In this document: positions 6,160 to 42,705 of the stretch, piece after piece
How positions within the stretch are numbered: the first letter of the stretch is position 1
Layout of the letters: every line of letters begins with the position of its first letter
Notes under the pieces: model-generated
Told to the model about the DNA's origin: nothing
The model's input: the letters and a program-made list of their open reading frames with translations, nothing else
The model's database searches: none
Translations under genes and position numbers: made by a program
Sequence record: PX055572.1
Reading direction: 5' to 3' (one strand)
Source: a phage
Length of the DNA: 44,832 bases

Positions 6160-6186
6160 GACGGCCTCCTCGTTTCGATGTAATGA

Positions 6187-6215
6187 ATAGTACCCTATTA
6201 TATTGGTGTGTGCAA
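6187..6215 (-). promoter_or_regulatory. Promoter G: TTGCAC-N17-TACTAT with AATAG-N4-CTATT palindrome
   Basis: As transcribed: TTGCAC ACACCAATATAATAGGG TACTAT; ~28 nt upstream of small peptide/lipoprotein operon. Confidence 0.55.
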
Positions 6216-6488
6216 ACTATTTATTTACGTATTCCAGTTATTCCACCGAATTGTAAATGTTGGAATAAACTATTCGAATAGTTGACTTTTCACTGAAAAT
6301 ATGCTAAGCTCCACCTGAGCTTGTGAAGTATGAACAAGCGACCGCGGCGCGGGCAGGTAACGGAGCGGGACGTAAGTCCTGAGTGTAGTTACGCTGACGC
6401 GTTCGGAAGGGCCATACTCTATTGCTTGTGTAAAAAGTAACTGGTTTACTGAGATTACGCCGTTTCTATGTTTAAATGATAAGGACTA

Positions 6489-15380: not shown

Positions 15381-15422
15381 AACATAACTCCTGATTTGAG
15401 ATAACATCGTTGGTGTAAGTGA

Positions 15423-15451
15423 ATAGTACGCTATTATATTGGGGAGTGCAA
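15423..15451 (-). promoter_or_regulatory. Promoter H: TTGCAC-N17-TACTAT with AATAG-N4-CTATT palindrome
   Basis: As transcribed: TTGCAC TCCCCAATATAATAGCG TACTAT; ~40 nt upstream of Imm-like gene. Confidence 0.55.
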
Positions 15452-15558
15452 GTAGTGTGCTAGAATAATTTTGCGCCTAGTGTCGCACACGAAAAGCGGG
15501 TGGTTCCCGTCTGGCGCATTTCCTTTAACCAGTAACCTCTTAACCAAAGGATTAAAGA

Positions 15559-27626: not shown

Positions 27627-28578
27627 TTACCGCCCCCATGAATGCCTTTATAAATTCAGCGGCTACTTGCGGGACGATGGCATTGCCGTAACCGCGCAAT
27701 CGTCCCACTCTGGCGGGTATCCCATTAGCCAGCGGGAATGTGCTGGGTTCAACTGGCCGGAACTTTCCATCCCTGCATCCGAGCCAGTCAGCATCTGACC
27801 AGAAGCTGTGATGCGGGTCGGCTTCGCCACCGGCGGTAAGTCGCTGTTGTCTGTTAGTTGCGCTATGGCCTGCGTTTGCAGATGCGTAGCCCGATGCATC
27901 GGCCTCCCACTGGTTCGGGGTGTCGCAAACACCCCGTCCATTGCCTTCGGCGTTTGCCACGCCGCCATCAAACCCTGTTCCGTAGCATAATCCAGACGGT
28001 CGAAGGTTCTGTCCTTCCCATCCTTGCGTATCACTGTCACCCCGCTGCCTTTGAAGTCGTTCGCTGTCGGTGTAGGCCAATTGGTGTGCGCCAAAGAACA
28101 GTCTGTCGCGTTTGTGCGGTGCGCCGACGCTACAAGCTGGGAGTACGGCAAACCCGACGGCGTAGTCTTCTCCTTCCAGGTGAGTTTGTAAATCGCACAT
28201 CCACGATTTTGCAATTGCTGGCGCAACCTGTTCCCCAAAGAGGACTGGAGGGTGGCACTCGCTGATGAGGTCGAGGAACACAGGTGCGAGGTGTCTCGGG
28301 TCGAACTGTCCGAGTTGCTTTCCTGCCGCGCTAAACGGTTGGCAAGGCGGGCTTCCCGTCCAGATAGGCGTATCTTCCGAAACTCCCGCAAGTCTGAGCG
28401 CGAGAGGCCAGCCGCCGATACCAGCGAAAAAATGACACTGGGTGAACCCGTCGAGGTCTTCTGGCTTAACTTCGGTAATGCTTCTTTCATCTACAACTCC
28501 AAAAGGTATATGACCCTGTTTTATTAGTTCACGCAGCCACGCGGCTGCGCCTTTATCCCATTCGTTGTAATAGTTCAT
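27619..28578 (-). CDS. DNA (cytosine-5)-methyltransferase
   Basis: Motif I FAGIGG, motif IV catalytic PCQ (SPPCQPFS), motif VI-like GEQV, motif VIII RDR, C-terminal [10 protein letters not shown]; 319 aa with Gly/Asn-rich variable region. Confidence 0.75.
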
Positions 28579-28766
28579 TTCGCCACCAGAACTAACTCTT
28601 TACGCCCGAATGCCGTAACGTTACCGGTTACATCTTCGATAACCAGTTTACCGTTTGACTCGACGAATACCGTATCAACGGCAACAGGGCGGCGGGTCTT
28701 AACGTTGAAAATCATGTCGCCCGGTACGATGTCACGTGCTGGTTTGCGGTCGTATTCGTGTTTCAT
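28575..28766 (-). CDS. Hypothetical protein (63 aa)
   Basis: SD AAGGAA upstream; directly downstream of promoter A; coupled to methyltransferase gene. Confidence 0.45.
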   Translation of the reverse strand: MKHEYDRKPARDIVPGDMIFNVKTRRPVAVDTVFVESNGKLVIEDVTGNVTAFGRKELVLVAK

Positions 28767-28796
28767 TTCTCAATTCCTTATATTGTTGGTGTAAGG

Positions 28797-29084
28797 CTAA
28801 CTATAATAGTTCGCTATTAGGGTGTCAACCTGTTTGAACGAACCAACTACAAAAACATTTGCACCACGCTTACGCATCCGCTCGTGCTCTCGTAACTGGT
28901 GCGGGTCAGGCTTCGTGCTTTCGTCTTTCTTCACCTCGACGAACCAGACGATGCCGCCAGGGAGAATTACCAGCAGGTCGGGAGCGCCGGAACGCCCCTC
29001 ATACACTATCTTACGAACGAGGCCACCAATGGCCTCGAATCGGTCTTTTGCGTATTTCTGTATTTTGCCCTCAGGCGTACTCAT
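28797..29084 (-). CDS. VRR-NUC domain nuclease
   Basis: PD-(D/E)xK-type core GAPDLLVILPGGIVWFVEVKK; ATG 29084 with SD GAGGGG (ORF track starts at upstream GTG). Confidence 0.6.
   Translation of the reverse strand: MSTPEGKIQKYAKDRFEAIGGLVRKIVYEGRSGAPDLLVILPGGIVWFVEVKKDESTKPDPHQLREHERMRKRGANVFVVGSFKQVDTLIANYYS
28800..28828 (-). promoter_or_regulatory. Promoter A: TTGACA-N17-TATAGT with palindrome in spacer
   Basis: As transcribed: TTGACA CCCTAATAGCGAACTAT TATAGT; between VRR-NUC gene and ORF 28575..28766. Confidence 0.6.
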
Positions 29085-29165
29085 CCACACACCCCTCACG
29101 TTTCGTATGTTCAGTACCGCAGCGCGGACAGATTCGACAGTCTTCTTCGTAGAACCAGTAAATTT

Positions 29166-29297
29166 TCATTCCAGCACCCACAGATAAATTGCGATGAACA
29201 TGCCCAATATGGCAACCATCATGCCGTATTGACCCTCGTGACAGTAGACACCTGCGGCAAATCCCGCCAGTACCGCGATAATCAGTTTACTTAGCAT
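29166..29297 (-). CDS. Small membrane peptide (43 aa)
   Basis: MLSKLIIAVLAGFAAGVYCHEGQYGMMVAILGMFIAIYLWVLE; start 8 nt beyond DNA polymerase stop; verified codon by codon. Confidence 0.3.
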   Translation of the reverse strand: MLSKLIIAVLAGFAAGVYCHEGQYGMMVAILGMFIAIYLWVLE

Positions 29298-31473
29298 AGC
29301 GTTTTAACTCCTGACCTTCCGCTACAAGAGGGAACCCCTCCGCCCATTCTGGTAATTCGCACATCAATCGCTCAAGCTCTGCGACATTGTATTCCGGCGT
29401 ATCTGGAGTTTCGCAGATAATCTCATCGTGGACATGAAGTACAATTGGATAACCGTTTGCTTCAACGTTAAGTAGCGCATTAGCCAGCAAGTCACGGCAC
29501 AGTGCCTGAGTGCAGTTTTCCACCAGTTTACCGGAGTAGGTGTACTGGAAGCCCCACTGCCTGGTTAACTGATTTTCACCCTGATACTTGATGCGCACGT
29601 TAGTAGAAACTTTTCCGTCTTCGTCTGTCTCTTTTGACACGCTCAACCCGACGCCCGGGTATGACATAACGCGACCTGACGGCAACGTCATGCGCAACCA
29701 CCAACCAGCGACTTTGTTGCCGTTGTTGTCTGTTTCTACGTTGCGAGAAAACTTAACCCCGCGAGGGCCAGCGGTGAACTCTTTCCCCGGATTACGGATT
29801 GCTGCCATAGCTGCGTCTTCAATATCGCGCCAGAATTGGACTATTGCAGGATTAGCTTCCCGGTACATGCGCTTTAAAGCGTCACAGGTGCGCCAAACTT
29901 TCTTATCAAGGATATATGAGGGTCGGTCATCTTTTTCACCAGGACGTGGTGGTCGCTTGGCTTCCTGAATACGCGCCCATTCGTATCCGCGTGCGGTAGC
30001 GGCCCAAATATGGTCCGGGAATGTACCGTCTAAAGTGTTAGTCATGTCATTCAAATCAAGACCTAAGTTTTTAGCAAACGTGACGAAAGCACCGACGCCC
30101 CCCGCGTAGCCGAGTCCCAGAACCATTGCTTTGGCTATTTGTCTTTGGTCCTTTGTTACGGCTTCATATGCAACATTGAACACCGTTGATGCGAGTTTCT
30201 TATACACATCAACCCCGTTTACAAATACTTCGATTAAATCGTCTTCACCCGCCAGCCACGCAAGACCGCGGCCTTCGACGTTAGAGTAATCGGCAACGAC
30301 AAACTTATGCCCTGCTTCCGGTATGATGCAGCTACGAACGGTCGATGCCGTTAGCTTGGCTACGTCAAATCGGCGGTGCGCCCGGCCCTTAAGTAACGCT
30401 GAAATGCCTTTATCCAGTTCATCATCGTGATAGTACCCACGCGCGAGGTTCTGCGGCTGAAAGCCTTTACCGGCAAATCGTAATGTACGCTTGGCTCCGC
30501 CGTACTGAATGCAACCACGACGGCGGTCGTCCGACGAGCGCCCTAACAGCAGCGGGTTATATTTCGTTGACGCTGTGGACGCGGCCCCGAGGCGCATTTC
30601 GATAATCGTGCGTGCGTCGTCCGGTAAATCATCATCCGCCAACAGGTCGTTAAGCGTAGACTTCTGCGCGTTGTGGATGCGGTGCGCTGGTGCAAGTTCA
30701 CGCAGAATCGGCAGGAAGTCTTTACCAGTAAGCGAGCCGCCGTATTTGCGCTGTGCTTCTTCCTGTAGCTGCGCTTTGTGCTTCTCCACGGCTTCAATCG
30801 CGGCTTCTGCCAGTGCAACGTCAACCTTAAATCCGCGGTCGTTAATCAACTGGTCCAGTTCCAGTACACGGTCTTCGAACTCGGAGTTACCCCAACGCGG
30901 CAGCTTATGGAAGACTTCACGCATCGCAGTGATGTCGCTCACGGCGTACCTGATGAACATCGCCCACTCGTCAGGGTGAGTTTCTGCGGTGTAGCGGCGG
31001 ATTTTGTAGTTCTTCGGCGTCGGTTTAGAGAAACGCTTAATCAGAGCCTTGCCGCGTTTATCTTTCGCGTTGTCTGCAGACACGCCCAGCACTTCGCACA
31101 GCGCATCAAGAGAACCCGGCAGCGCGTGACGGAACGCCCAAATCATAGTATCAATGGTGTTACTTACCGGAATATCAAAGTCCCAGCAGTGTTTCATGAT
31201 TAGGCGATCGAACATTGAACCGTTGTGCCATACCATCTTAATGCGGCTGTTGGGCTTAACAAGGCGGCGCAGTGCGCGGTGTAAATCCCCCGGCATGTCG
31301 CTGCCGTCGGTGCAATCCCATACCCGCACAGGTTCGTCGTCAAAAGCATATGTACAGATAAGCACTTCGGTTGACGGGTGTTCGGCGTAAGCGTAAGAAC
31401 CGACTTTCTTCAAATCGGCTTCTGAGAATGTTTCAAAGTCTAAGTAAAGCAATGTGTTCATAGTCTGTACCAC
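29287..31473 (-). CDS. DNA polymerase, family A, with 3'-5' exonuclease domain
   Basis: Exo I-like LYLDFETFS at N-terminus; polymerase motifs KAMVLGLGYAGG and HVHDEIICE; 728 aa. Confidence 0.85.
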   Translation of the reverse strand: MVQTMNTLLYLDFETFSEADLKKVGSYAYAEHPSTEVLICTYAFDDEPVRVWDCTDGSDMPGDLHRALRRLVKPNSRIKMVWHNGSMFDRLIMKHCWDFDIPVSNTIDTMIWAFRHALPGSLDALCEVLGVSADNAKDKRGKALIKRFSKPTPKNYKIRRYTAETHPDEWAMFIRYAVSDITAMREVFHKLPRWGNSEFEDRVLELDQLINDRGFKVDVALAEAAIEAVEKHKAQLQEEAQRKYGGSLTGKDFLPILRELAPAHRIHNAQKSTLNDLLADDDLPDDARTIIEMRLGAASTASTKYNPLLLGRSSDDRRRGCIQYGGAKRTLRFAGKGFQPQNLARGYYHDDELDKGISALLKGRAHRRFDVAKLTASTVRSCIIPEAGHKFVVADYSNVEGRGLAWLAGEDDLIEVFVNGVDVYKKLASTVFNVAYEAVTKDQRQIAKAMVLGLGYAGGVGAFVTFAKNLGLDLNDMTNTLDGTFPDHIWAATARGYEWARIQEAKRPPRPGEKDDRPSYILDKKVWRTCDALKRMYREANPAIVQFWRDIEDAAMAAIRNPGKEFTAGPRGVKFSRNVETDNNGNKVAGWWLRMTLPSGRVMSYPGVGLSVSKETDEDGKVSTNVRIKYQGENQLTRQWGFQYTYSGKLVENCTQALCRDLLANALLNVEANGYPIVLHVHDEIICETPDTPEYNVAELERLMCELPEWAEGFPLVAEGQELKRYAK

Positions 31474-31736
31474 GTCTGATAGTCTGCTTCTGTGAGATGG
31501 TCGTCGCGATCTTGTTTCTTGTTTTTACCGCGTTCTATGATTTCTGCCCAAGTCCGGTCTGGGTCTGTGTCTTCTATTAAATGTTTATGCTCCTCGCATG
31601 CATAGTGTTTATACCAGTCTCGTACACCGTAAGCTGGAGGGTATTTAGTCATCCAAATTGCTCTAACTTTTTTACCTTCTGCCTTACAAAATTTGCAGTA
31701 TGTGATGCGTCTGTATCTCTTAAGTTCCGCTGCCAT
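31458..31736 (-). CDS. Cys/His-rich hypothetical protein (zinc-binding-like)
   Basis: CKFC...CEEHKH pattern; 92 aa; overlaps polymerase start by 16 nt. Confidence 0.4.
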   Translation of the reverse strand: MAAELKRYRRITYCKFCKAEGKKVRAIWMTKYPPAYGVRDWYKHYACEEHKHLIEDTDPDRTWAEIIERGKNKKQDRDDHLTEADYQTWYRL

Positions 31737-31749
31737 TATTTTCGACCCT

Positions 31750-31776
31750 TAGTAAAAAGGCCCAATGAAGGGCCTT
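31750..31776 (-). terminator. Intrinsic terminator after SSB-like gene
   Basis: AAGGCCC-aatgaa-GGGCCTT; on - strand followed by TTTTAC. Confidence 0.5.
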
Positions 31777-31795
31777 AGTTAAATTGATTCAGAAA

Positions 31796-32419
31796 TTAAC
31801 GGCGGCGACGTTCGCGACGCGGTGCGTCTTCTTCGTCGTCTTCCAGGTCCTCGACGCTTGCAGCTACTTTAGAACCACCGAACGCTTTACCTTCGCCTAC
31901 GTATTTAATCGCCAGCAGGTTAACGCCGAGGACTTTGTATTTCTGGCTGAACCAGATTTCAACGCTTACGTTAGCTAAGCATCCGCTGTAAACCTGTTCA
32001 CCTTCAATCTGTTCGCCGTCTACGTTGAAGTCCTGCTCTACCTGAGTCTCACCTTTTTTAGAGGTTACAATCAGCGGCTGTTTCTGTGCCTTCGCTTTGA
32101 AGTAGAAGCCTTCCGGGAAGTCTTCAAACGGATTGTCGCGCTCGGCAATGTCTTTAATCGCGCATTTATCCATGTGCTTACCTTCACCGTAGTTGGACTT
32201 CATCCATTTCTCGGCAGCGGCTGCGCCTAACGCTTCTTCAACTACAGCGTAAACGGTGTCGTAGAGTGCATCGATTTGAGCATGGTCAGACGGCAGGATG
32301 ATAGTCGCGCTGTACTGGCCTTTAGTGATTGAGCCATCATCGTTTTCACGGTCTTTTTCACGTTCAAATACGTTAACCCATGCAGTGTTTACTTTACGCA
32401 GATTCAGTTTAATACCCAT
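31796..32419 (-). CDS. Single-stranded DNA-binding protein-like (acidic C-terminal tail)
   Basis: 207 aa with strongly acidic C-terminus SVEDLEDDEEDA followed by RRERRRR; position beside polymerase and exonuclease; downstream of promoter B. Confidence 0.45.
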   Translation of the reverse strand: MGIKLNLRKVNTAWVNVFEREKDRENDDGSITKGQYSATIILPSDHAQIDALYDTVYAVVEEALGAAAAEKWMKSNYGEGKHMDKCAIKDIAERDNPFEDFPEGFYFKAKAQKQPLIVTSKKGETQVEQDFNVDGEQIEGEQVYSGCLANVSVEIWFSQKYKVLGVNLLAIKYVGEGKAFGGSKVAASVEDLEDDEEDAPRRERRRR

Positions 32420-32487
32420 CGTGATTTCTCGCTTTTCAGTTTATATTTCAAAGTTTACTCCGGGAAGCTGCCCGGCCAGTGATTAGA

Positions 32488-32516
32488 ACTATAATAGCTA
32501 ACTATTCAGGTGTCAA
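32488..32516 (-). promoter_or_regulatory. Promoter B: TTGACA-N17-TATAGT with palindrome in spacer
   Basis: As transcribed: TTGACA CCTGAATAGTTAGCTAT TATAGT; upstream of SSB-like gene. Confidence 0.6.
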
Positions 32517-32520
32517 CACT

Positions 32521-33762
32521 TTATTCCAAATCTTCTTCACTAACCTGATTCCACTCAGGCCGTTTGTCGTCTGCCGTTGTGACGCATGGGGCACCTGGCT
32601 TACGTGTGATGAAGTCTTTCAGTTCTTCTTCCGGTATCACTTTAACAGCTTCGGCTGGCGTCATGAGCACTTCTTTAGTCAGCTTGTCGCCGTAGAGTTC
32701 TGTTACTTTCTCCGCGTCTTTCCACGCACGATTGCCCATCTTACCTTCAACCAGCTTGTACCCAGGAACTTTCTTACCAGAATGCAATGCGGCGGCCATC
32801 GCTTTCTCAACCTTGTCGATGTGCTGCCGCAACAACGGCAACTTCTCATACTCAACTACGAGTTGCTCCGGCGTCAGTTCTAGCACAAAGTCGTCTTCAA
32901 GTCCTTCCGCCAGTACAGAGTTAACGGTTTTTGTACGCGCGGCGCACTGTTCTGAGAACCGGCACCACTGGCAACCATCGACCGACGGCCTGAAGTCCGA
33001 CGCTTTCAGGTTCTTCTTACCGCGGAAATATGCATCTAACGCTAACAGGGCACGTTTCTGTGCGAACTTAGCGAACAGCTCCAGACCTTCGACCGAGATG
33101 TCCCACTCTGACGCACCTCCCGCGTACGGCTGGAAGATGACCAGGCGCACTACCGTGATGTTATAACGTCTCTTGAGTCGGCGATAAACACCGAGAGCGT
33201 AAAGCATAAGCTGCTTGTTCTCTTTCGCTTCGACACGATGCCGTCCTGTTTTAAGGTCGCCGATAATAAGCATGTGCTCGTCGGTGTTGGCCTGTTCCTG
33301 CACGGCAACAAGGTCGGCCGTTCCGAACGTCTCAACACCTTCATACCCCGGATGCAATACCTCAGTAAGATTGACACGCATTTCCAGCTTGGCGTAAGTC
33401 GCTACATCGATAACAGCTTTGCAGTAGTCGGTGTACTTGCGCACCTGCTCAATCATGTCAGCCGTAATCAGGACAGCGCCTTTCATCGGGCTAATTAGTG
33501 CCTTAATCTGGCCTTTGCCTTCATCCAGCACGTAAGCACCGACTTCACGTTCTAACGGCAACGCAGTGCCTTTGATGTACTGGTTTAGGTGCATCTCAGC
33601 TATTGTGTGCATTGCCGTACCTAATACGGCGGCTTTACCGGACGTGTTAGGGATATCTTTTTCACAGGCCAGTGATGCGGCACAGCTTAGCCACTTTTTA
33701 GCGCCAGACGGTGATAGTAAAGCGTGTACGTCGTTATTACCGCCGCGTTCTTTTAGAATCAT
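32521..33762 (-). CDS. PD-(D/E)xK exonuclease with C-terminal Cys cluster (Cas4/RecB-like)
   Basis: 413 aa; IIGDLKTG...MLYALG core and C-terminal CQWCRFSEQC cluster; ends in EEDLE. Confidence 0.55.
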   Translation of the reverse strand: MILKERGGNNDVHALLSPSGAKKWLSCAASLACEKDIPNTSGKAAVLGTAMHTIAEMHLNQYIKGTALPLEREVGAYVLDEGKGQIKALISPMKGAVLITADMIEQVRKYTDYCKAVIDVATYAKLEMRVNLTEVLHPGYEGVETFGTADLVAVQEQANTDEHMLIIGDLKTGRHRVEAKENKQLMLYALGVYRRLKRRYNITVVRLVIFQPYAGGASEWDISVEGLELFAKFAQKRALLALDAYFRGKKNLKASDFRPSVDGCQWCRFSEQCAARTKTVNSVLAEGLEDDFVLELTPEQLVVEYEKLPLLRQHIDKVEKAMAAALHSGKKVPGYKLVEGKMGNRAWKDAEKVTELYGDKLTKEVLMTPAEAVKVIPEEELKDFITRKPGAPCVTTADDKRPEWNQVSEEDLE

Positions 33763-34121
33763 CGTAAACTCTCCAAATACAAGTTTAATGCCTGTAGCTG
33801 TTCTTCTGTGGGAATGAAAGAATGATCGCGATGTAAGTCGCTTAACTGTTGCAGCATTCCTGCGAACTTACGTCTTGCGTCAATAGCGACCATGTGATGC
33901 TTTTCACTTTTATATATTAATGTTTTCGGGTAATCCTCAAGCCTACCAGACGATTTATTCACGCGGAGCGCCCGAGCTTCATGCACAATGTGAATGTACT
34001 TTTTGCCGTTTTGTAACACAGTAGCTACGCCGCTGCTCTTTCTGCGGTCGCCGACTGTGTAAACCTTGTCGCCACTACGCAGATTAAGCCACCATTTATC
34101 GGTCATACCCTGTTCTCCCAC
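33759..34121 (-). CDS. Hypothetical protein
   Basis: 120-aa ORF coupled within replication operon. Confidence 0.35.
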   Translation of the reverse strand: MGEQGMTDKWWLNLRSGDKVYTVGDRRKSSGVATVLQNGKKYIHIVHEARALRVNKSSGRLEDYPKTLIYKSEKHHMVAIDARRKFAGMLQQLSDLHRDHSFIPTEEQLQALNLYLESLR

Positions 34122-34375
34122 TGGTCAATTAAATGTCGTGTCTGGTGCTGGCAGTGCATGGCCCAGCTATACATCGACTCGAAGACATAAAAGTCAGGCT
34201 TGGCAAAAGTCGTGCGCTTAATCTGCGACACGTGACGGCCTATATCTTTGGGCCTGGGTACTTTGCCTAAGTACGCCATCTCTTCCATCTGGTGCGCACC
34301 GGAAGGAGCGCGCAATAGCCATAGAGCCTCCGTGTTATCCCGTCGGTCAATACCTCGGTAGAGTTGGTAAATCAT
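34103..34375 (-). CDS. Hypothetical protein
   Basis: 90-aa ORF in replication operon. Confidence 0.35.
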   Translation of the reverse strand: MIYQLYRGIDRRDNTEALWLLRAPSGAHQMEEMAYLGKVPRPKDIGRHVSQIKRTTFAKPDFYVFESMYSWAMHCQHQTRHLIDQWENRV

Positions 34376-34417
34376 ATTACGACCCTCAGTTAAAGCGGCC
34401 CGAAGGCCGCGGGATAG

Positions 34418-34936
34418 TTATTCTTCTTCGAAATACTTGTTCTTGATTGCCGTCAGGCGTTCAAGGTACTCGGGCAGGTCTTCATCTTTAATCGCGGCAA
34501 TCTTCATTTTCTTACCGGTGAACTCCTCCAGCAGTTCATCGGAATCGTCGCACGCAGCATCGCTAGGACCTTCGTTAATTGCATCGTCGATAGCCTGAAT
34601 CTGGTCACGCAGAGACTTATAATCTACTTCTTCCTTCTCTTCTTCCGGCTCTGGCGTAGGCTCCTCTGCTTTAGCTTTACGCGGCTTGCGTTTAGGCTTC
34701 TCTTCTTCTGCCGGTTTAGTGTCGACTATGTCTTCACCTTCTACCGGGATTTCTTTCGTTACTTCTTTCACAACAGTAGGCTCTATTGTTGCAGTTTCTG
34801 CGACACCACTGTCGGCGTCTTTACCATATGGCGCCGTGATAGCCTTCGGCAGTTCAGTACGGCGTGCACTGTTCGCGGCAATCAGTTCATGTGCAACTAC
34901 GAAACGTTCCAGCAATACTAAGAATTTCTCTAACAT
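34418..34936 (-). CDS. Acidic hypothetical protein
   Basis: 172 aa, Glu/Asp-rich with lysine cluster (KPKRKPRKAK). Confidence 0.4.
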   Translation of the reverse strand: MLEKFLVLLERFVVAHELIAANSARRTELPKAITAPYGKDADSGVAETATIEPTVVKEVTKEIPVEGEDIVDTKPAEEEKPKRKPRKAKAEEPTPEPEEEKEEVDYKSLRDQIQAIDDAINEGPSDAACDDSDELLEEFTGKKMKIAAIKDEDLPEYLERLTAIKNKYFEEE

Positions 34937-34960
34937 TTGTTTCTCTCCTGTTTGTGTAAG

Positions 34961-35188
34961 TTACTCACCGTCGCCTTCAGTAAGGCTATCGTCTATTAGT
35001 TCAAATTTACCGTTTGAGTGTTGAATAGCTTCTTGCCCGCAATGGTCACAGACAACAAGTTTATCGAACCCATCAAACTCATCCCCTACTACGCAAGAAA
35101 GTACAAATTTATGTTTTGTGCACACTTCTTGCGGAGCGCCGAAAATTGCTCGAAAACCTTTAGCTATGGCCCCAGTGATTGTGTTCAT
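34961..35188 (-). CDS. Small Cys-rich (zinc-ribbon-like) protein
   Basis: CxxxxxxxxC...CDHC pattern; 75 aa; first gene downstream of promoter C. Confidence 0.4.
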   Translation of the reverse strand: MNTITGAIAKGFRAIFGAPQEVCTKHKFVLSCVVGDEFDGFDKLVVCDHCGQEAIQHSNGKFELIDDSLTEGDGE

Positions 35189-35216
35189 ATCTGCCCCTCT
35201 CGTTTGGTATGGGCTA

Positions 35217-35245
35217 ACTATAATAGCGAACTATTCACATGTCAA
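35217..35245 (-). promoter_or_regulatory. Promoter C: TTGACA-N17-TATAGT with palindrome in spacer
   Basis: As transcribed: TTGACA TGTGAATAGTTCGCTAT TATAGT; in divergent region facing Cro-like gene. Confidence 0.6.
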
Positions 35246-35289
35246 TGGGCTTTTCTAAAATAATTAATATGGTACTATTCACATATCAA
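35234..35289 (+). promoter_or_regulatory. Candidate rightward promoter and operator-like half-palindrome for Cro-like gene
   Basis: TTCACA (35234-35239)-N16-TAAAAT (35256-35261) overlapping promoter C; downstream element GGTACTATTCACATATCAA (35271-35289) resembles the palindrome. Confidence 0.35.
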
Positions 35290-35309
35290 CTGACTAAGGA
35301 GTAACTGAC

Positions 35310-35525
35310 ATGCAACCATCTGAACTAGGCACCCGTGTAGAACAACGCCGTAAAGAACTCGGCATCTCCCAGCGCCGTTTGGCGGTCCTGACCGGCGTTT
35401 CCCAGGGCGCAATTAACCAGCTGGCTCTCGGTGTAACTCAGGACGTCCGCCCGGCAACGTTGTTTAAACTGGCGGAAGTGCTGGAAGTAGACGCTAAGTG
35501 GCTGGCGTTCGGTGAAGGGGCTTGA
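35310..35525 (+). CDS. HTH XRE-family transcriptional regulator (Cro-like)
   Basis: ISQRRLAVLTGVSQGAINQL helix-turn-helix; 71 aa; SD AAGGAG; divergent from replication operon; followed by terminator. Confidence 0.65.
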   Translation: MQPSELGTRVEQRRKELGISQRRLAVLTGVSQGAINQLALGVTQDVRPATLFKLAEVLEVDAKWLAFGEGA

Positions 35526-35542
35526 CGCCCCTTTCTTTTTAT
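35515..35542 (+). terminator. Intrinsic terminator after Cro-like gene
   Basis: GGGGC-ttgac-GCCCC then TTTCTTTTTATT; overlaps the stop codon. Confidence 0.6.
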
Positions 35543-35736
35543 TGCACCTTTATCGGGTATCTTTTGCGAAACTTACCTAACCCGCAGTACACGCTGTAAG
35601 CCTCTGTGTAACTGAACACAACATGATACCCGCGCCCATAAGGAACTACGTTAAGAACTTCTACTACTTCGCCTCTGTGGTTGGTGTATTTATTACCTTT
35701 CAGTTCGTCGCTTACTTCTTTAAATTTACCGCTCAT
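35539..35736 (-). CDS. Hypothetical protein
   Basis: 65 aa, coupled to primase-helicase stop. Confidence 0.35.
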   Translation of the reverse strand: MSGKFKEVSDELKGNKYTNHRGEVVEVLNVVPYGRGYHVVFSYTEAYSVYCGLGKFRKRYPIKVQ

Positions 35737-38018
35737 TCCAAATCCTCCTCTGTCACTGTCAACATTTCATTCGGTTCGTATATTGTCTTTGGAATCTTGT
35801 TATCAGTTATTCTGGTGTTCAGCCTGTAACGACCTGGGATTATCTGATTGTTTTCGTCAGTACCCGGAACAAGATACCCGGCCTCAACCATTTTCTTAAT
35901 CTTCCCGCGTTCTATGGCTTCTTTGGAGTTAAACGCCTTTGCGTTGGGGTCTGACTGTGCGAGCTTATTCGCCGCGGCGACTGTGATGCCTTCGTTGCCG
36001 TTGTAGGTTCCTTCCGCCAGTTCAAACGCCGCGAGTATCGTGGCCTCCGAACTGTTGACGGCGTTCTCTACGGTTTTACGTACATTTTCTTTACCTTCTT
36101 TCGTCAACCCTTCTTCCCGCTCTTTCTCCTCGTCAGTTTTGAACGGCTCGAAACCCCACGGCATCAACACAAGCGCCTTGTGTGGTTCAGGCAGGTCCAG
36201 GTTTACGATTGTGCCGTATTCCTCTGTGCTACCCGGGAACTCAACCGCTCGGTATTCTTTAGGCGGCGGCGCTTCACGGAACTGTACCGACTCCAGCACC
36301 ATGCCAACCGTCTTCTGCTGAGGCCCGTGCTTGAATTTCGAGTGATATACGTTTATCTGACGGTCGGTTGCACGTTCGATTGTCAGTTCCACGTCAACAC
36401 CCGCATACAGCGCCCCACTGCCGCGTGCTTTCTTTCCACCCTTCGGCGTATGGTGGACAACGCCTACTGCGGCTTTAGTTGCATCGCGTACTTCTTTCAG
36501 AATGGCGATAACTTTACCCATGCCGATTGCTGTTGATGAACTGTTCTCGTCGAACTTATCAATCGTCAGGGCCAGCGTCTGGTTAAGGGTGTCGAAGGCA
36601 ACCATGCCAATAGGTTCATCCCCTGCGGTTTCGCGCATCCTGCGGATTAGAGCTGGAATTTTTTTATCACCATGCGTAGCGAGTATTTCGCCCATATCGA
36701 TGACATGTACATAATCTTTACCTTCCTCGCCATATTTAGCCGCGAGTGCATCAATACGTGTTCGTGTAGCTGCACCACCCTCGCCGTCAATATAGAAATG
36801 GTAGCAACGTTGGGTGTCAGCCCCCGCAAACCGGTACCCGGCGGCGCTCAGGTACATCATCCCCAGCGTATAGAATGATTTGTACGTGCCGGATTCCCCG
36901 ACAATATCCCAGATACAATCCGACGGCATGTACCCCTCAACGACGAAATCAGCCTTTACCGGTTCTGGTAACTCGTCCTCCTCTGAGTCCTCGTCGTCTT
37001 CCAGGTCGTCGAGGCTGCATGAGACAGATTCACGCGCCCCCCAACCGATGGCCTCTGCGACTTCACTGAACGGCAGCCCGGTCGCATCGCACGCGTACTT
37101 CCACACCTCTTTCGGTGACAGGCCTTCTGTCGCCGTAATGTCTGTGTCGTGAATCATGGTTACGTTTGGCGCTTCATACCCCTCGCGCGGGAAGCACAGC
37201 AGGAAGTCGTCCGGGCGCGGTGCCGGGGCGCTGTAGTTTTCGGCATGTTCCGGTGTGGCTGGCATCTTAAGGCCGCGCGGCGTCATGACGCCGCCGTACT
37301 CAAACGCCAGTGCTTCAAACGCGTCTGTAAACGCGGTGCGCAGTTCTTCCGGTATCTGGTAATCCGATGCGCTGCTAACGTCAACGGCGGGGATGCCTTC
37401 CAGTAACTCGTTCGGGTCGATCAGGTCGTTGCGGCGCGACCAGATAACGGTAGCGCCGACCGGCGGCAGGTACATCGGCTGCGACAGAGTGAACCCGCTG
37501 CGGTCCGCACCCATGCCTTTGAAGAAGTGCTCCAGCAACCCATGACGAACACGGATGATGTCACCACCCTCCACCGGACGGGCCAGTGGCATTACGACGC
37601 GAAAGCGCGGTGACTCATCAGTATGTGATGCCGTGGTATAGAGGCACATGGCCCAGCGGCTGCGCTTAACCAGGCGCACCGCTTCCTGATACTCTTCCGG
37701 TGTTGTGCTGTCGAAATCCAGATAGGCCAGCGACGATTTGCTTACAGACGCATCGCAGCGGTAGAAAAAACCTTTACGCGCTTGCTTAAAGTCTCCAGTT
37801 TCCGGGTCTTTTACGGTGCTGTGCGTTGAGTCGCACGCGGCGGTGATATAACCGGGCGCGGTCTTAGGGTTAATCCCGTCGCGAACGGCATCGAGCGGCT
37901 GGATTAACTCTTTCAGGTCGTCCAGTGTTGCCGTGTGTGCGGTTCTGACATTTATATCCTTTTTTCCCGCCCGCGCGTTGCGGCGTGACCACGAGTAGGA
38001 TAAAATTACATCGGACAT
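35733..38018 (-). CDS. Bifunctional primase-polymerase (AEP-like) / RecA-fold helicase
   Basis: N-terminal LAYLDFD (DxD) and SH motifs of prim-pol type; central Walker A GESGTYKS and Walker B-like MVAFDTL; C-terminus ends EEDLE; 761 aa. Confidence 0.7.
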   Translation of the reverse strand: MSDVILSYSWSRRNARAGKKDINVRTAHTATLDDLKELIQPLDAVRDGINPKTAPGYITAACDSTHSTVKDPETGDFKQARKGFFYRCDASVSKSSLAYLDFDSTTPEEYQEAVRLVKRSRWAMCLYTTASHTDESPRFRVVMPLARPVEGGDIIRVRHGLLEHFFKGMGADRSGFTLSQPMYLPPVGATVIWSRRNDLIDPNELLEGIPAVDVSSASDYQIPEELRTAFTDAFEALAFEYGGVMTPRGLKMPATPEHAENYSAPAPRPDDFLLCFPREGYEAPNVTMIHDTDITATEGLSPKEVWKYACDATGLPFSEVAEAIGWGARESVSCSLDDLEDDEDSEEDELPEPVKADFVVEGYMPSDCIWDIVGESGTYKSFYTLGMMYLSAAGYRFAGADTQRCYHFYIDGEGGAATRTRIDALAAKYGEEGKDYVHVIDMGEILATHGDKKIPALIRRMRETAGDEPIGMVAFDTLNQTLALTIDKFDENSSSTAIGMGKVIAILKEVRDATKAAVGVVHHTPKGGKKARGSGALYAGVDVELTIERATDRQINVYHSKFKHGPQQKTVGMVLESVQFREAPPPKEYRAVEFPGSTEEYGTIVNLDLPEPHKALVLMPWGFEPFKTDEEKEREEGLTKEGKENVRKTVENAVNSSEATILAAFELAEGTYNGNEGITVAAANKLAQSDPNAKAFNSKEAIERGKIKKMVEAGYLVPGTDENNQIIPGRYRLNTRITDNKIPKTIYEPNEMLTVTEEDLE

Positions 38019-38075: not shown

Positions 38076-38309
38076 TTATTCCAGGTCTTCTACAGTAGCG
38101 GTCATTCCGCGAACTTCAGCAACTGCGCTATATTTCCCACCAACATTTTTCACGACACCATATTTAACCAGTACCTTCAACGACCCTTCAATAATGGCGG
38201 AACTATAGTACTTAAAATAACTACGGCGCAAGTCCATAACGCTGCACGACCCTTTTTTACGTGTTAATGAAACGACTGCCGTAAATACGCGTGACTGGAA
38301 CTCGGTCAT
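38076..38309 (-). CDS. Small protein, ends in EDLE
   Basis: 77 aa; C-terminus TVEDLE matches the EDLE tails of the exonuclease and primase-helicase. Confidence 0.4.
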   Translation of the reverse strand: MTEFQSRVFTAVVSLTRKKGSCSVMDLRRSYFKYYSSAIIEGSLKVLVKYGVVKNVGGKYSAVAEVRGMTATVEDLE

Positions 38310-38476
38310 TTTACATTCTCCTTAATCCACGCTTCCACTTTCTCCCGGTCAAACGTACCTGGCTGACGGCGGCCCATAATGCGGATACAACAATCCGGGA
38401 ACTTCCCACTCTTTAACCAGTTATTCAGCGTGCGACGGGTAACCCCGATACGCTCAGCTACCTCATTCTGTGTCAT
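38306..38476 (-). CDS. AlpA-like HTH DNA-binding regulator
   Basis: MTQNEVAERIGVTRRTLNNWLKSGKFP... resembles AlpA/excisionase-type HTH (from memory); first ATG downstream of - strand promoter TTGATT-N17-TATACT; ORF track starts at TTG 38503. Confidence 0.5.
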   Translation of the reverse strand: MTQNEVAERIGVTRRTLNNWLKSGKFPDCCIRIMGRRQPGTFDREKVEAWIKENVK

Positions 38477-38508: not shown

Positions 38509-38537
38509 AGTATACATTGTGAATAATGGGAAATCAA
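38509..38537 (-). promoter_or_regulatory. Leftward promoter TTGATT-N17-TATACT for AlpA-like gene and replication operon
   Basis: -35 (rev) 38532-38537, -10 (rev) 38509-38514, spacer 17. Confidence 0.5.
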
Positions 38538-38712
38538 ACATAATCGCACCTATTGACATTATGAAAATCTTCGTTTAAGGTGCTTTTATATCTTAGTTAC
38601 TTTGATTCTTGTTCACCTTGTAATACCCGCTTGAAACGCAGCGGCGCACCAGCGCCAGCGAAGTGTTAAGCGGCAGATTACTGAACATATGAATTATCGT
38701 AACTTTCCTTCC

Positions 38713-38775
38713 TAAGTATCTCAGGTTGCCCTGGGCAAGCTCTATTCTCATCGACGGCATATCTCTTAAGTATCT
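38713..38775. repeat. Direct repeats TAAGTATCT (x2) in divergent intergenic region
   Basis: cctAAGTATCTcagg at 38713-38721 and cttAAGTATCTgata at 38767-38775. Confidence 0.3.
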
Positions 38776-38813
38776 GATAATTAAAAGTTTCTATAGTTGC
38801 CGTGAGCAATGTT

Positions 38814-38870
38814 GAGAGTACTTCACTCCGCTGGGGTGGGCTAAAGCCCACCCGCTGCGTTGCGTACTCT
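38814..38870 (+). other. Composite stem-loop in divergent intergenic region
   Basis: Outer stem AGAGTAC/GTACTCT enclosing GGGTGGGC-taaa-GCCCACCC; followed by TTTTAAG; no ORF. Confidence 0.35.
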
Positions 38871-38912
38871 TTTAAGAAACGAAAGAATCACAACGGCAAC
38901 GTAACTATTCTC

Positions 38913-38941
38913 TTGCACACCCCAACATAATAGGTTACTAT
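38913..38941 (+). promoter_or_regulatory. Promoter D: TTGCAC-N17-TACTAT with AATAG-N4-CTATT palindrome
   Basis: TTGCAC ACCCCAACATAATAGGT TACTAT; 35 nt upstream of ATG 38976. Confidence 0.55.
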
Positions 38942-38975
38942 TCACTTATAGAAACGAGACAGAGGAGTGAGGGTT

Positions 38976-40039: not shown

Positions 40040-40068
40040 TTGCACACTGGGATAGAATAGGCTACTAT
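40040..40068 (+). promoter_or_regulatory. Promoter E: TTGCAC-N17-TACTAT with AATAG-N4-CTATT palindrome
   Basis: TTGCAC ACTGGGATAGAATAGGC TACTAT; 32 nt upstream of ATG 40100. Confidence 0.55.
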
Positions 40069-40099
40069 TCATTTACACAAACGAGAGGAGAGACAGAAG

Positions 40100-42621: not shown

Positions 42622-42656
42622 ATCCCGGCCCTGACCCAGCCGGGATTTTTTTTTAT
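42622..42656 (+). terminator. Strong intrinsic terminator after lysozyme gene
   Basis: CCCGGC-cctgaccca-GCCGGG followed by ATTTTTTTTT. Confidence 0.7.
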
Positions 42657-42676
42657 CTATTTTCTGTAATGACTAG

Positions 42677-42705
42677 TTGACTATTACCTACGACCCTATT
42701 ATATT
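42677..42705 (+). promoter_or_regulatory. Promoter F: TTGACT-N17-TATATT
   Basis: Located after the lysozyme terminator, 34 nt upstream of ATG 42739. Confidence 0.5.

Follow-up and report, generated by a model that had tools for sequence, protein, structure and literature searches.

The operators bound by the Cro protein and the repressor of phage 434 are 14 bp long, with conserved outer bases and half-sites around a variable centre; they overlap the -10 or the -35 hexamer of strong promoters, and the regulator gene lies beside the divergent region that bears them. Arc and Mnt of phage P22 use a palindromic operator placed in the promoter spacer, at which the bound repressor excludes the polymerase. 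The early promoters of T5 (P25, P26, N25) and T7 (A1-A3) have near-consensus hexamers at an optimal spacer, are used by the unmodified host polymerase and share extra conserved positions outside the hexamers. Features of all these systems recur in the phage DNA analysed here, sequence record PX055572.1 (44,832 nucleotides, referred to as the window; all coordinates are those of this stretch). Three minus-strand promoters, A, B and C, punctuate its leftward replication genes, and their spacers carry a 14-bp palindrome, AATAG-N4-CTATT (E), which is common to about seven other promoters of the window. We propose that A, B and C are host sigma-70 promoters and that E is an operator, most probably that of a 71-amino-acid protein resembling 434 Cro, a combined reading to which we give about an even chance.

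Region 28000-36000 of the window is 90-93% identical to Escherichia phages BEU33, phiEc4 and Golestan and matches 475 phage records, nearly all Kagunavirus or Jerseyvirus, which identifies the window as an essentially complete genome of an E. coli phage of the genus Kagunavirus (Guernseyvirinae), a group of virulent siphophages. Annotated relatives have the same layout, a leftward block of replication and recombination genes flanked on one side by the tail-spike gene and on the other by a divergent early region. No RNA-polymerase domain was found by domain search in any large open reading frame (ORF) of the window, which argues that the phage relies on the host polymerase, and no RNA polymerase is annotated in the relatives. 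Neither an integrase nor a two-domain CI protein is present among the window ORFs or in the annotated relatives.

The literature on promoters and transcription in the Guernseyvirinae consists of two PHIRE tables and one coarse RNA-seq paper, and no transcription-start or regulator-binding study was found in it. The fBC-Eco01 paper gives seven PHIRE hits with the consensus tgAATAGTa-ccTATTat-T, assigned to a 'phage-encoded RNA polymerase'. In the Golestan paper, the seven PHIRE sequences (Table S4) include E of promoter C on the opposite strand (entry 4, TAATAGCGAACTATTCACAT) and, also as a PHIRE promoter, E*, a degenerate copy near promoter C. These 'phage-specific promoters' are the same DNA element as E, there read as promoters of a phage polymerase. 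Promoters A, B and C are absent from the host-promoter lists of both papers. Time-course RNA-seq of the Kagunavirus K1B4 found four early genes only, one of them a helix-turn-helix (HTH) gene (PMC12645636).

An earlier note on this DNA had singled out A, B and C by the arrangement TTGACA-N17-TATAGT on the minus strand. Exactly three such elements were found in the window against 0.01 expected, and none of 100 shuffled sequences gave three. They are its sole 11-of-12 matches to sigma-70 hexamers and its top-scoring sigma-70 sites: the -35 matches at six of six positions, the -10 at five of six, with A-11 and T-7 present, and the spacer is 17 bp. The total of weaker promoter-like matches is no higher than in shuffled sequences, and only A, B and C stand out by their hexamers. 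Promoter A occupies 28828..28800 (-35 at 28828..28823, -10 at 28805..28800), promoter B 32516..32488 (-35 at 32516..32511, -10 at 32493..32488) and promoter C 35245..35217 (-35 at 35245..35240, -10 at 35222..35217), all on the minus strand. Transcription is predicted to start at about 28793, 32481 and 35210, respectively, giving leaders to the co-oriented genes of about 27, 62 and 22 nt, plausible distances for a ribosome-binding site.

The gene contexts reported for the three promoters proved correct. Promoter A lies within the last 10 codons of the VRR-NUC ORF (28797..29099), whose TAG stop is immediately 3' of the -10, and 34 nt upstream of the ATG of a 63-amino-acid ORF (28575..28766). Promoter B begins 5 nt past the stop of a DUF2800/PD-(D/E)XK exonuclease gene and precedes a gene for an Enc34-type single-stranded DNA-binding protein (SSB; 31796..32419). 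Promoter C precedes ORF 34961..35188, the first gene of the distal block, and lies in the 121-bp divergent gap that separates this ORF from a 71-amino-acid HTH gene; an A/T-rich, UP-like tract is present upstream of it (about 35246..35265). A, B and C are thus very probably genuine promoters, and their hexamers, spacer, distance to the genes and conservation lend good support to the proposal of host sigma-70 promoters that punctuate the leftward replication cluster.

The spacer core that these promoters were said to share needs correction: GAATAGnnnGCTAT fits B and C but not A, which reads TAATAGCGAACTAT. Common to all three is the palindrome E, which overlaps the -10 by one base, its final T (28818..28805, AATAGCGAACTATT, in A; 32506..32493, AATAGTTAGCTATT, in B; 35235..35222, AATAGTTCGCTATT, in C; all minus strand). 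A class defined by its hexamers therefore misses the main point, as the conserved spacer represents a single copy of an element that recurs across the genome and defines other promoter classes too. The suggestion that such promoters need repression or timing control is plausible, and the embedded palindrome with its copies at the other promoters supports it.

E is present in seven exact copies in the window and in 10 copies when one mismatch is allowed, against 1.05 expected (none of 100 shuffles reached 10), and is by far the commonest 5-N-5 palindrome. All copies lie in promoter gaps between genes, except that of A, at the 3' end of a gene. The 10 sites have no common central sequence, and they occupy three registers and both orientations relative to the -35 and -10 hexamers. 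In class 1 (TTGCAC-N17-TACTAT), E extends from about -19 to -6 and its right half supplies the -10; class 2 consists of A, B and C, with E in the spacer at -25 to -12; in class 3, the -35 (TTGACT) lies inside a copy of E that has one mismatch. The registers differ by 6 and 14 bp, and all lie within -40 to -6. Accessory genes and small genes of early type are headed by class 1, replication genes by class 2 and late genes by class 3.

Class-1 copies of E were found at 6186..6199 (minus strand, leftward), 15422..15435 (minus strand, leftward, heading superinfection-immunity, phosphatase and kinase genes), 38929..38942 (plus strand, rightward, small early-type genes) and 40056..40069 (plus strand, rightward). 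E* (35266..35279, plus strand, AATATGGTACTATT, one mismatch) contains the -10 TACTAT of a class-1-like promoter for the 71-amino-acid HTH gene. The class-3 promoter at 42672..42705 (plus strand) carries E as ACTAGTTGACTATT, one mismatch, around TTGACT, with TATATT as -10, and heads a late rightward unit directly 3' of a terminator; the T-run of that terminator (42625-42660, plus strand) varies from about 7 to 14 T among relatives. A class-3-like promoter at 6277..6310 (plus strand; E as AATAGTTGACTTTT, one mismatch, around TTGACT; -10 TAAGCT) heads the spanin, scaffold and capsid unit and is host promoter HP1 of the fBC-Eco01 list. One clear promoter lacks E: TTGATT-N17-TATACT at 38537..38509 (minus strand), at the start of the leftward operon, ahead of a gene for a 56-amino-acid HTH_17 protein. 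A conserved leader, ttACAccAAACGAGAGGAG, is present between most promoters and the start codon.

Conservation was examined in 76 IMG/VR loci around homologues of the 71-amino-acid HTH gene, and in SE2 (Jerseyvirus, NC_016763), Shemara (Cornellvirus), Bas72 and EC3-1. Among Kagunavirus loci, A was found in 30 (-35 TTGACG in 22, TTGACA in eight), B in 33 and C in 37, the spacer of C being 17 bp in 23 loci and 18 bp in 14. Each of the three was found in 13 Jerseyvirus loci, with TTGATA, TTGACA or TTGCAT as -35 and TATATT or TATAGT as -10. Wherever the region was covered (50 Kagunavirus and Jerseyvirus genomes), A, B and C stood at the same gene junctions, with variation at the level of the hexamers only. 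The 5-bp half-sites of E are invariant across paralogous sites and across the 37 + 13 genomes, while at C several central tetranucleotides occur (TTCG, TTAG, TTCA, CTCG, CTAG, TTTG) and linkers of different sequence and length join the -35 to E (tgtg, ccatg, agtg and acgtg among them). Promoter A keeps its motif despite a different VRR-NUC C-terminal peptide in the two genera (TLIANYYS versus KLIEHYYI), and Shemara has the same VRR-NUC Q-V-D codons (CAGGTTGAC) with no promoter there.

The motif itself differs by genus. Jerseyvirus half-sites read TAATAG on both sides (40 of 40), whereas in Kagunavirus one side is extended (TGAATAG/TAATAG); SE2 has seven E sites against 1.2 expected. A sequence search of the Cornellvirus Shemara found no E at all; the equivalents of B and C and two promoters with an embedded -35 carry instead the non-palindromic ATTAG-N4-RTATT, in four copies against 0.1 expected. 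In an IMG/VR scan with TGAATAG-N4-CTATTATA, multiple matches were confined to Kagunavirus contigs, and outside the subfamily only single chance matches in unrelated contigs were obtained.

These properties suggest an operator rather than a polymerase contact, because the half-sites are invariant while the centre and the linkers vary. E would be the site of a separate protein, as it is symmetric, occurs in three registers and has only its half-sites in common between paralogous promoters; from its sequence and distribution we infer that this protein is a dimeric phage repressor, and repression as the direction of control, like its timing, is part of the same prediction. The favoured binder is the 71-amino-acid HTH_3 (XRE/Cro-type) protein encoded divergently from promoter C (35310..35525, plus strand). 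It matches Pfam HTH_3 (E-value 2.3e-12), and its best sequence match in the PDB is 434 Cro, over the full length (E-value 1.3e-6). A single-sequence AlphaFold2 (AF2) model (pLDDT 81, five helices) has 434 Cro (2cro, TM 0.72/0.78) and the 434 repressor as top folds. The 121-bp gap on the 5' side of the gene holds E* as well as E of promoter C, and in all three genera a degenerate E is present at the gene's own promoter. The protein keeps the glutamine that contacts base 1 in 434, with genus-specific neighbouring helix positions: the recognition helix reads SQGAINQ in Kagunavirus, SQSLITH in Jerseyvirus and TQSAISH in Cornellvirus, and helix and motif shift together by genus. The centres of E in promoter C and of E* are 44 bp apart in Kagunavirus and about 55 bp in Jerseyvirus, both near whole helical turns, and cooperative binding at the two sites is conceivable.

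The repeated motif has been accounted for, or could be, by the polymerase itself. Table S2 of the fBC-Eco01 paper labels the E sequences 'Phage RNAP promoter', and Table S4 of the Golestan paper lists them too; yet neither the window nor the annotated relatives have an RNA-polymerase gene, and E is palindromic, lies in both orientations relative to the downstream genes and in three registers, and is flanked by good sigma-70 hexamers. The missing gene and the palindromic element rule out promoters of this kind, and we see practically no chance for them. It is also improbable that E is no separate protein site but reflects common descent or copied promoter cassettes, combined with polymerase-related preferences such as symmetric -10-like hexamers that would give bidirectional promoters. 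T4 and T5 promoter sets do share extra conserved positions, E has -10-like hexamers on both strands with a perfect TATAAT opposite A, B and C, and the leaders downstream of the promoters are also alike (AAACGAGAGGAG). However, recent duplication is hard to square with paralogous promoters that share only the half-sites and differ in centre and linkers; in A, B and C the left half-site, at -25 to -21, falls in a zone where sigma-70 makes no base-specific contacts; and one and the same palindrome occupies three registers. Bidirectional promoters were rejected, as the hexamers of the opposite strand show no conservation as -10 elements (the centre is TA only where it serves as part of TACTAT) and the opposite-strand TATAAT has no -35.

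If a separate protein binds E, it need not be the HTH_3 protein. The 56-amino-acid HTH_17 protein (excisionase/MerR-like; 38306..38476, minus strand) might repress, activate or load onto the polymerase, in the manner of MerR or of AlpA/Q. Its gene has the plain, E-less promoter described above and heads the leftward operon, it is probably the HTH gene among the four early genes of K1B4 (the assignment is ours), and the protein has weak Pfam matches to MerR families. It is 85-91% identical between Kagunavirus and Jerseyvirus, the two genera with E; Cornellvirus has neither the protein nor the palindrome. Its helix 3, however, varies within Kagunavirus (TRRTLNNW, TRQTINNW, STMTLNRW) with E unchanged and is the same in Kagunavirus and Jerseyvirus although the flanks of E differ, and Cornellvirus has a promoter-embedded motif without the gene; none of ten small Shemara proteins is a substitute HTH protein. 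The three registers speak against a stereospecific activator or loader, and the spacers are 17-18 bp, compared with 19-20 bp in MerR-type promoters. The protein does not match a MerR-type regulator, having only 56 amino acids, MerR matches below cut-off and an AF2 model with no significant fold match. HTH_17 was downgraded on its variable helix 3 and its absence from motif-bearing Cornellvirus, and as the binder of E we consider it quite unlikely. Another phage protein of unassigned family is an unlikely candidate as well. Several such small proteins, among them the 63-amino-acid protein encoded downstream of A (28575..28766, 95% identical) and the 77-amino-acid protein encoded beside HTH_17 (38076..38309, 70% identical), are highly conserved between Kagunavirus and Jerseyvirus and absent from Cornellvirus, but they have no recognisable DNA-binding domain and, unlike HTH_3, none is encoded beside an operator-bearing divergent promoter. 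A host transcription factor of E. coli or Salmonella, exploited by the phage, is very improbable. The palindrome is common to Kagunavirus (E. coli) and Jerseyvirus (Salmonella) despite their slightly different hosts; Cornellvirus, which infects Salmonella like Jerseyvirus, nevertheless has a different, non-palindromic motif at equivalent promoters, and the N4 spacing is not known to match that of any E. coli factor, no host-site database having been consulted. The ATAG/CTAT half-sites resemble OxyR-type sites, whose N7 spacing does not fit. A likeness of the class-3 sites (ACTAGTTGACTA) to the trp operator was dropped, as neither spacing nor sequence fits.

The preference for HTH_3 over HTH_17 as the probable binder of E is based on the three lineages and on gene position, and several points weigh against the operator reading with HTH_3 as regulator, for which this protein is a candidate only. 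The co-variation of helix and motif involves three lineages; the Kagunavirus and Jerseyvirus motifs differ by one flanking base, the Jerseyvirus and Cornellvirus helices are more alike than their motifs, and a Cro-type homodimer would not usually be expected to bind a non-palindromic motif such as that of Cornellvirus. Genomes of one genus are at least 90% identical, so that conservation among them carries little weight. If every promoter, late ones included, carries an operator, the escape of late genes needs explaining. The K1B4 RNA-seq places the DNA polymerase and methylases among 'late' genes, a timing too coarse to confirm or refute the proposal (PMC12645636; public K1B4 RNA-seq data, PRJNA939978 / PRJCA028359).

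Under the proposed control by HTH_3, steric repression would be the simplest action, because every register of E lies within -40 to -6; three registers and both orientations fit it and do not fit a polymerase contact or a stereospecific activator. The protein bound at E in A, B and C would occlude RNA polymerase. At class-1 promoters the operator would cover the -10, at the regulator's own promoter it is degenerate, and at late promoters it would lie over the -35 with one mismatch. One small protein might thus damp or shut off nearly all transcription units of the phage in a graded way, perfect sites first. An extended version of this proposal is doubtful as a whole: in a virulent siphophage that encodes neither a polymerase nor a sigma factor nor an antiterminator, a single 71-amino-acid Cro-like protein and a single palindrome in three registers would control the entire timing of gene expression. 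The -10 register would serve early and accessory genes, the spacer register replication genes, and the register over or just upstream of the -35 late genes; perfect sites would be switched off first, and mismatched late sites spared or even activated. A copy of E centred near -44 of a possible tail-operon promoter (15439..15466) is a possible case of activation.

The promoters divide the leftward genes into units. Transcription from 38537 would cross HTH_17 and the helicase-primase gene and then meet the convergent HTH_3 gene and the intrinsic terminator that follows it (35514..35534, plus strand), which separates the helicase-primase operon from the unit of promoter C. Promoter C would restart leftward transcription past this gene and its terminator. 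Promoter B would give the SSB gene (minus strand; Pfam PF10991, E-value 8.6e-16; Gp2.5-like, an identity that the Bas72 annotation also supports) a strong promoter of its own. An intrinsic terminator lies directly 3' of the SSB gene (31776..31754, minus strand, AAGGCCC-ttcatt-GGGCCTTTTT), and Shemara has one annotated at the same place. Because this terminator is strong, promoter B and the SSB gene form a nearly separate unit within the 'operon'; the terminator would close it and reduce read-through into the DNA polymerase gene, an arrangement that suits a protein needed in stoichiometric amounts. Promoter A would feed the 63-amino-acid ORF, a cytosine methylase gene and a SNF2 helicase gene.

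The predicted transcript of B begins with a hairpin (32460..32475, minus strand, CCGGG-cagctt-CCCGG) followed by an A-rich leader. Within this SSB leader (32420-32482, minus strand), the 5-bp GC stem is kept with a loop of variable length and shows a double change in Cornellvirus (CCTGG/CCAGG), and the A-rich stretch has one to three copies of a GAAACT repeat in different phages. The fold energy of the hairpin is not better than that of shuffled sequences, its support being conservation and the one double change. T4 gene 32 likewise has a strong promoter of its own, a structured 5' end, an unstructured A-rich leader and a terminator. The SSB here is of the Gp2.5/Enc34 type, unlike gp32, and its leader recalls the autoregulated leader of gene 32.

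The other comparisons are also partial. 434 Cro has the same length as the HTH_3 protein (71 amino acids), is a single-domain HTH protein and is its best match in sequence and fold. However, the present phage has no CI partner, integrase or lysogeny module, E is dispersed over about ten promoters of a virulent genome whereas 434 has triple operators at two sites, and the half-site is AATAG, not ACAA, its operator role here being predicted. The system would work in the way of a Cro-operator circuit, here distributed across the genome of a virulent phage; it is not an immunity region, because CI and integrase are both missing. Arc and Mnt, whose operator placement resembles that of E in A, B and C, are ribbon-helix-helix proteins and control one promoter region rather than a genome-wide set. 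The T5 and T7 early promoters cluster at the genome end that enters first, whereas A, B and C lie within an operon and contain the palindrome.

Three further features of these genomes were seen. On the plus strand, 15470-15534 matches the Rfam int-alpA RNA (RF02996; 36.6 bits, gathering score 35.8). The match falls within the leader of the operon for tail assembly and tail genes, just 3' of the possible rightward promoter TTGGGG-N16-TAGAAT (15439..15466), which stands back-to-back with a leftward class-1 promoter; at least 14 Kagunavirus contigs conserve the sequence, and relatives score just under the threshold. About 390 bp at 38540-38930 have no convincing gene but do have a strong hairpin (GGGTGGGCtttaGCCCACCC); other Kagunaviruses carry either of two different cassettes in their place, one with (GAGT)n repeats, and an origin, an RNA gene and a recombination hot spot are conceivable roles. 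SE2 matches ColE1-type RNAI (96 bits) at 32123-32225 (minus strand), within an unannotated gap of its reference record, probably a plasmid or vector sequence in the assembly.

Host promoters combined with a repressor operator are a well-known kind of system, of which this phage is a well-defined further case. The published reading of the repeated motif as a phage-polymerase promoter is corrected, since these phages encode no such polymerase, and the promoters with the operator could give phage engineering a set of compact parts that are both strong and repressible. Among the E. coli and Salmonella phages put forward for use in therapy and biocontrol, Kagunaviruses and Jerseyviruses are some of the most frequently isolated; the analysis provides a testable map of their transcription programme, with about ten promoters in three classes, one shared putative operator, one prime candidate regulator and a discrete SSB unit.

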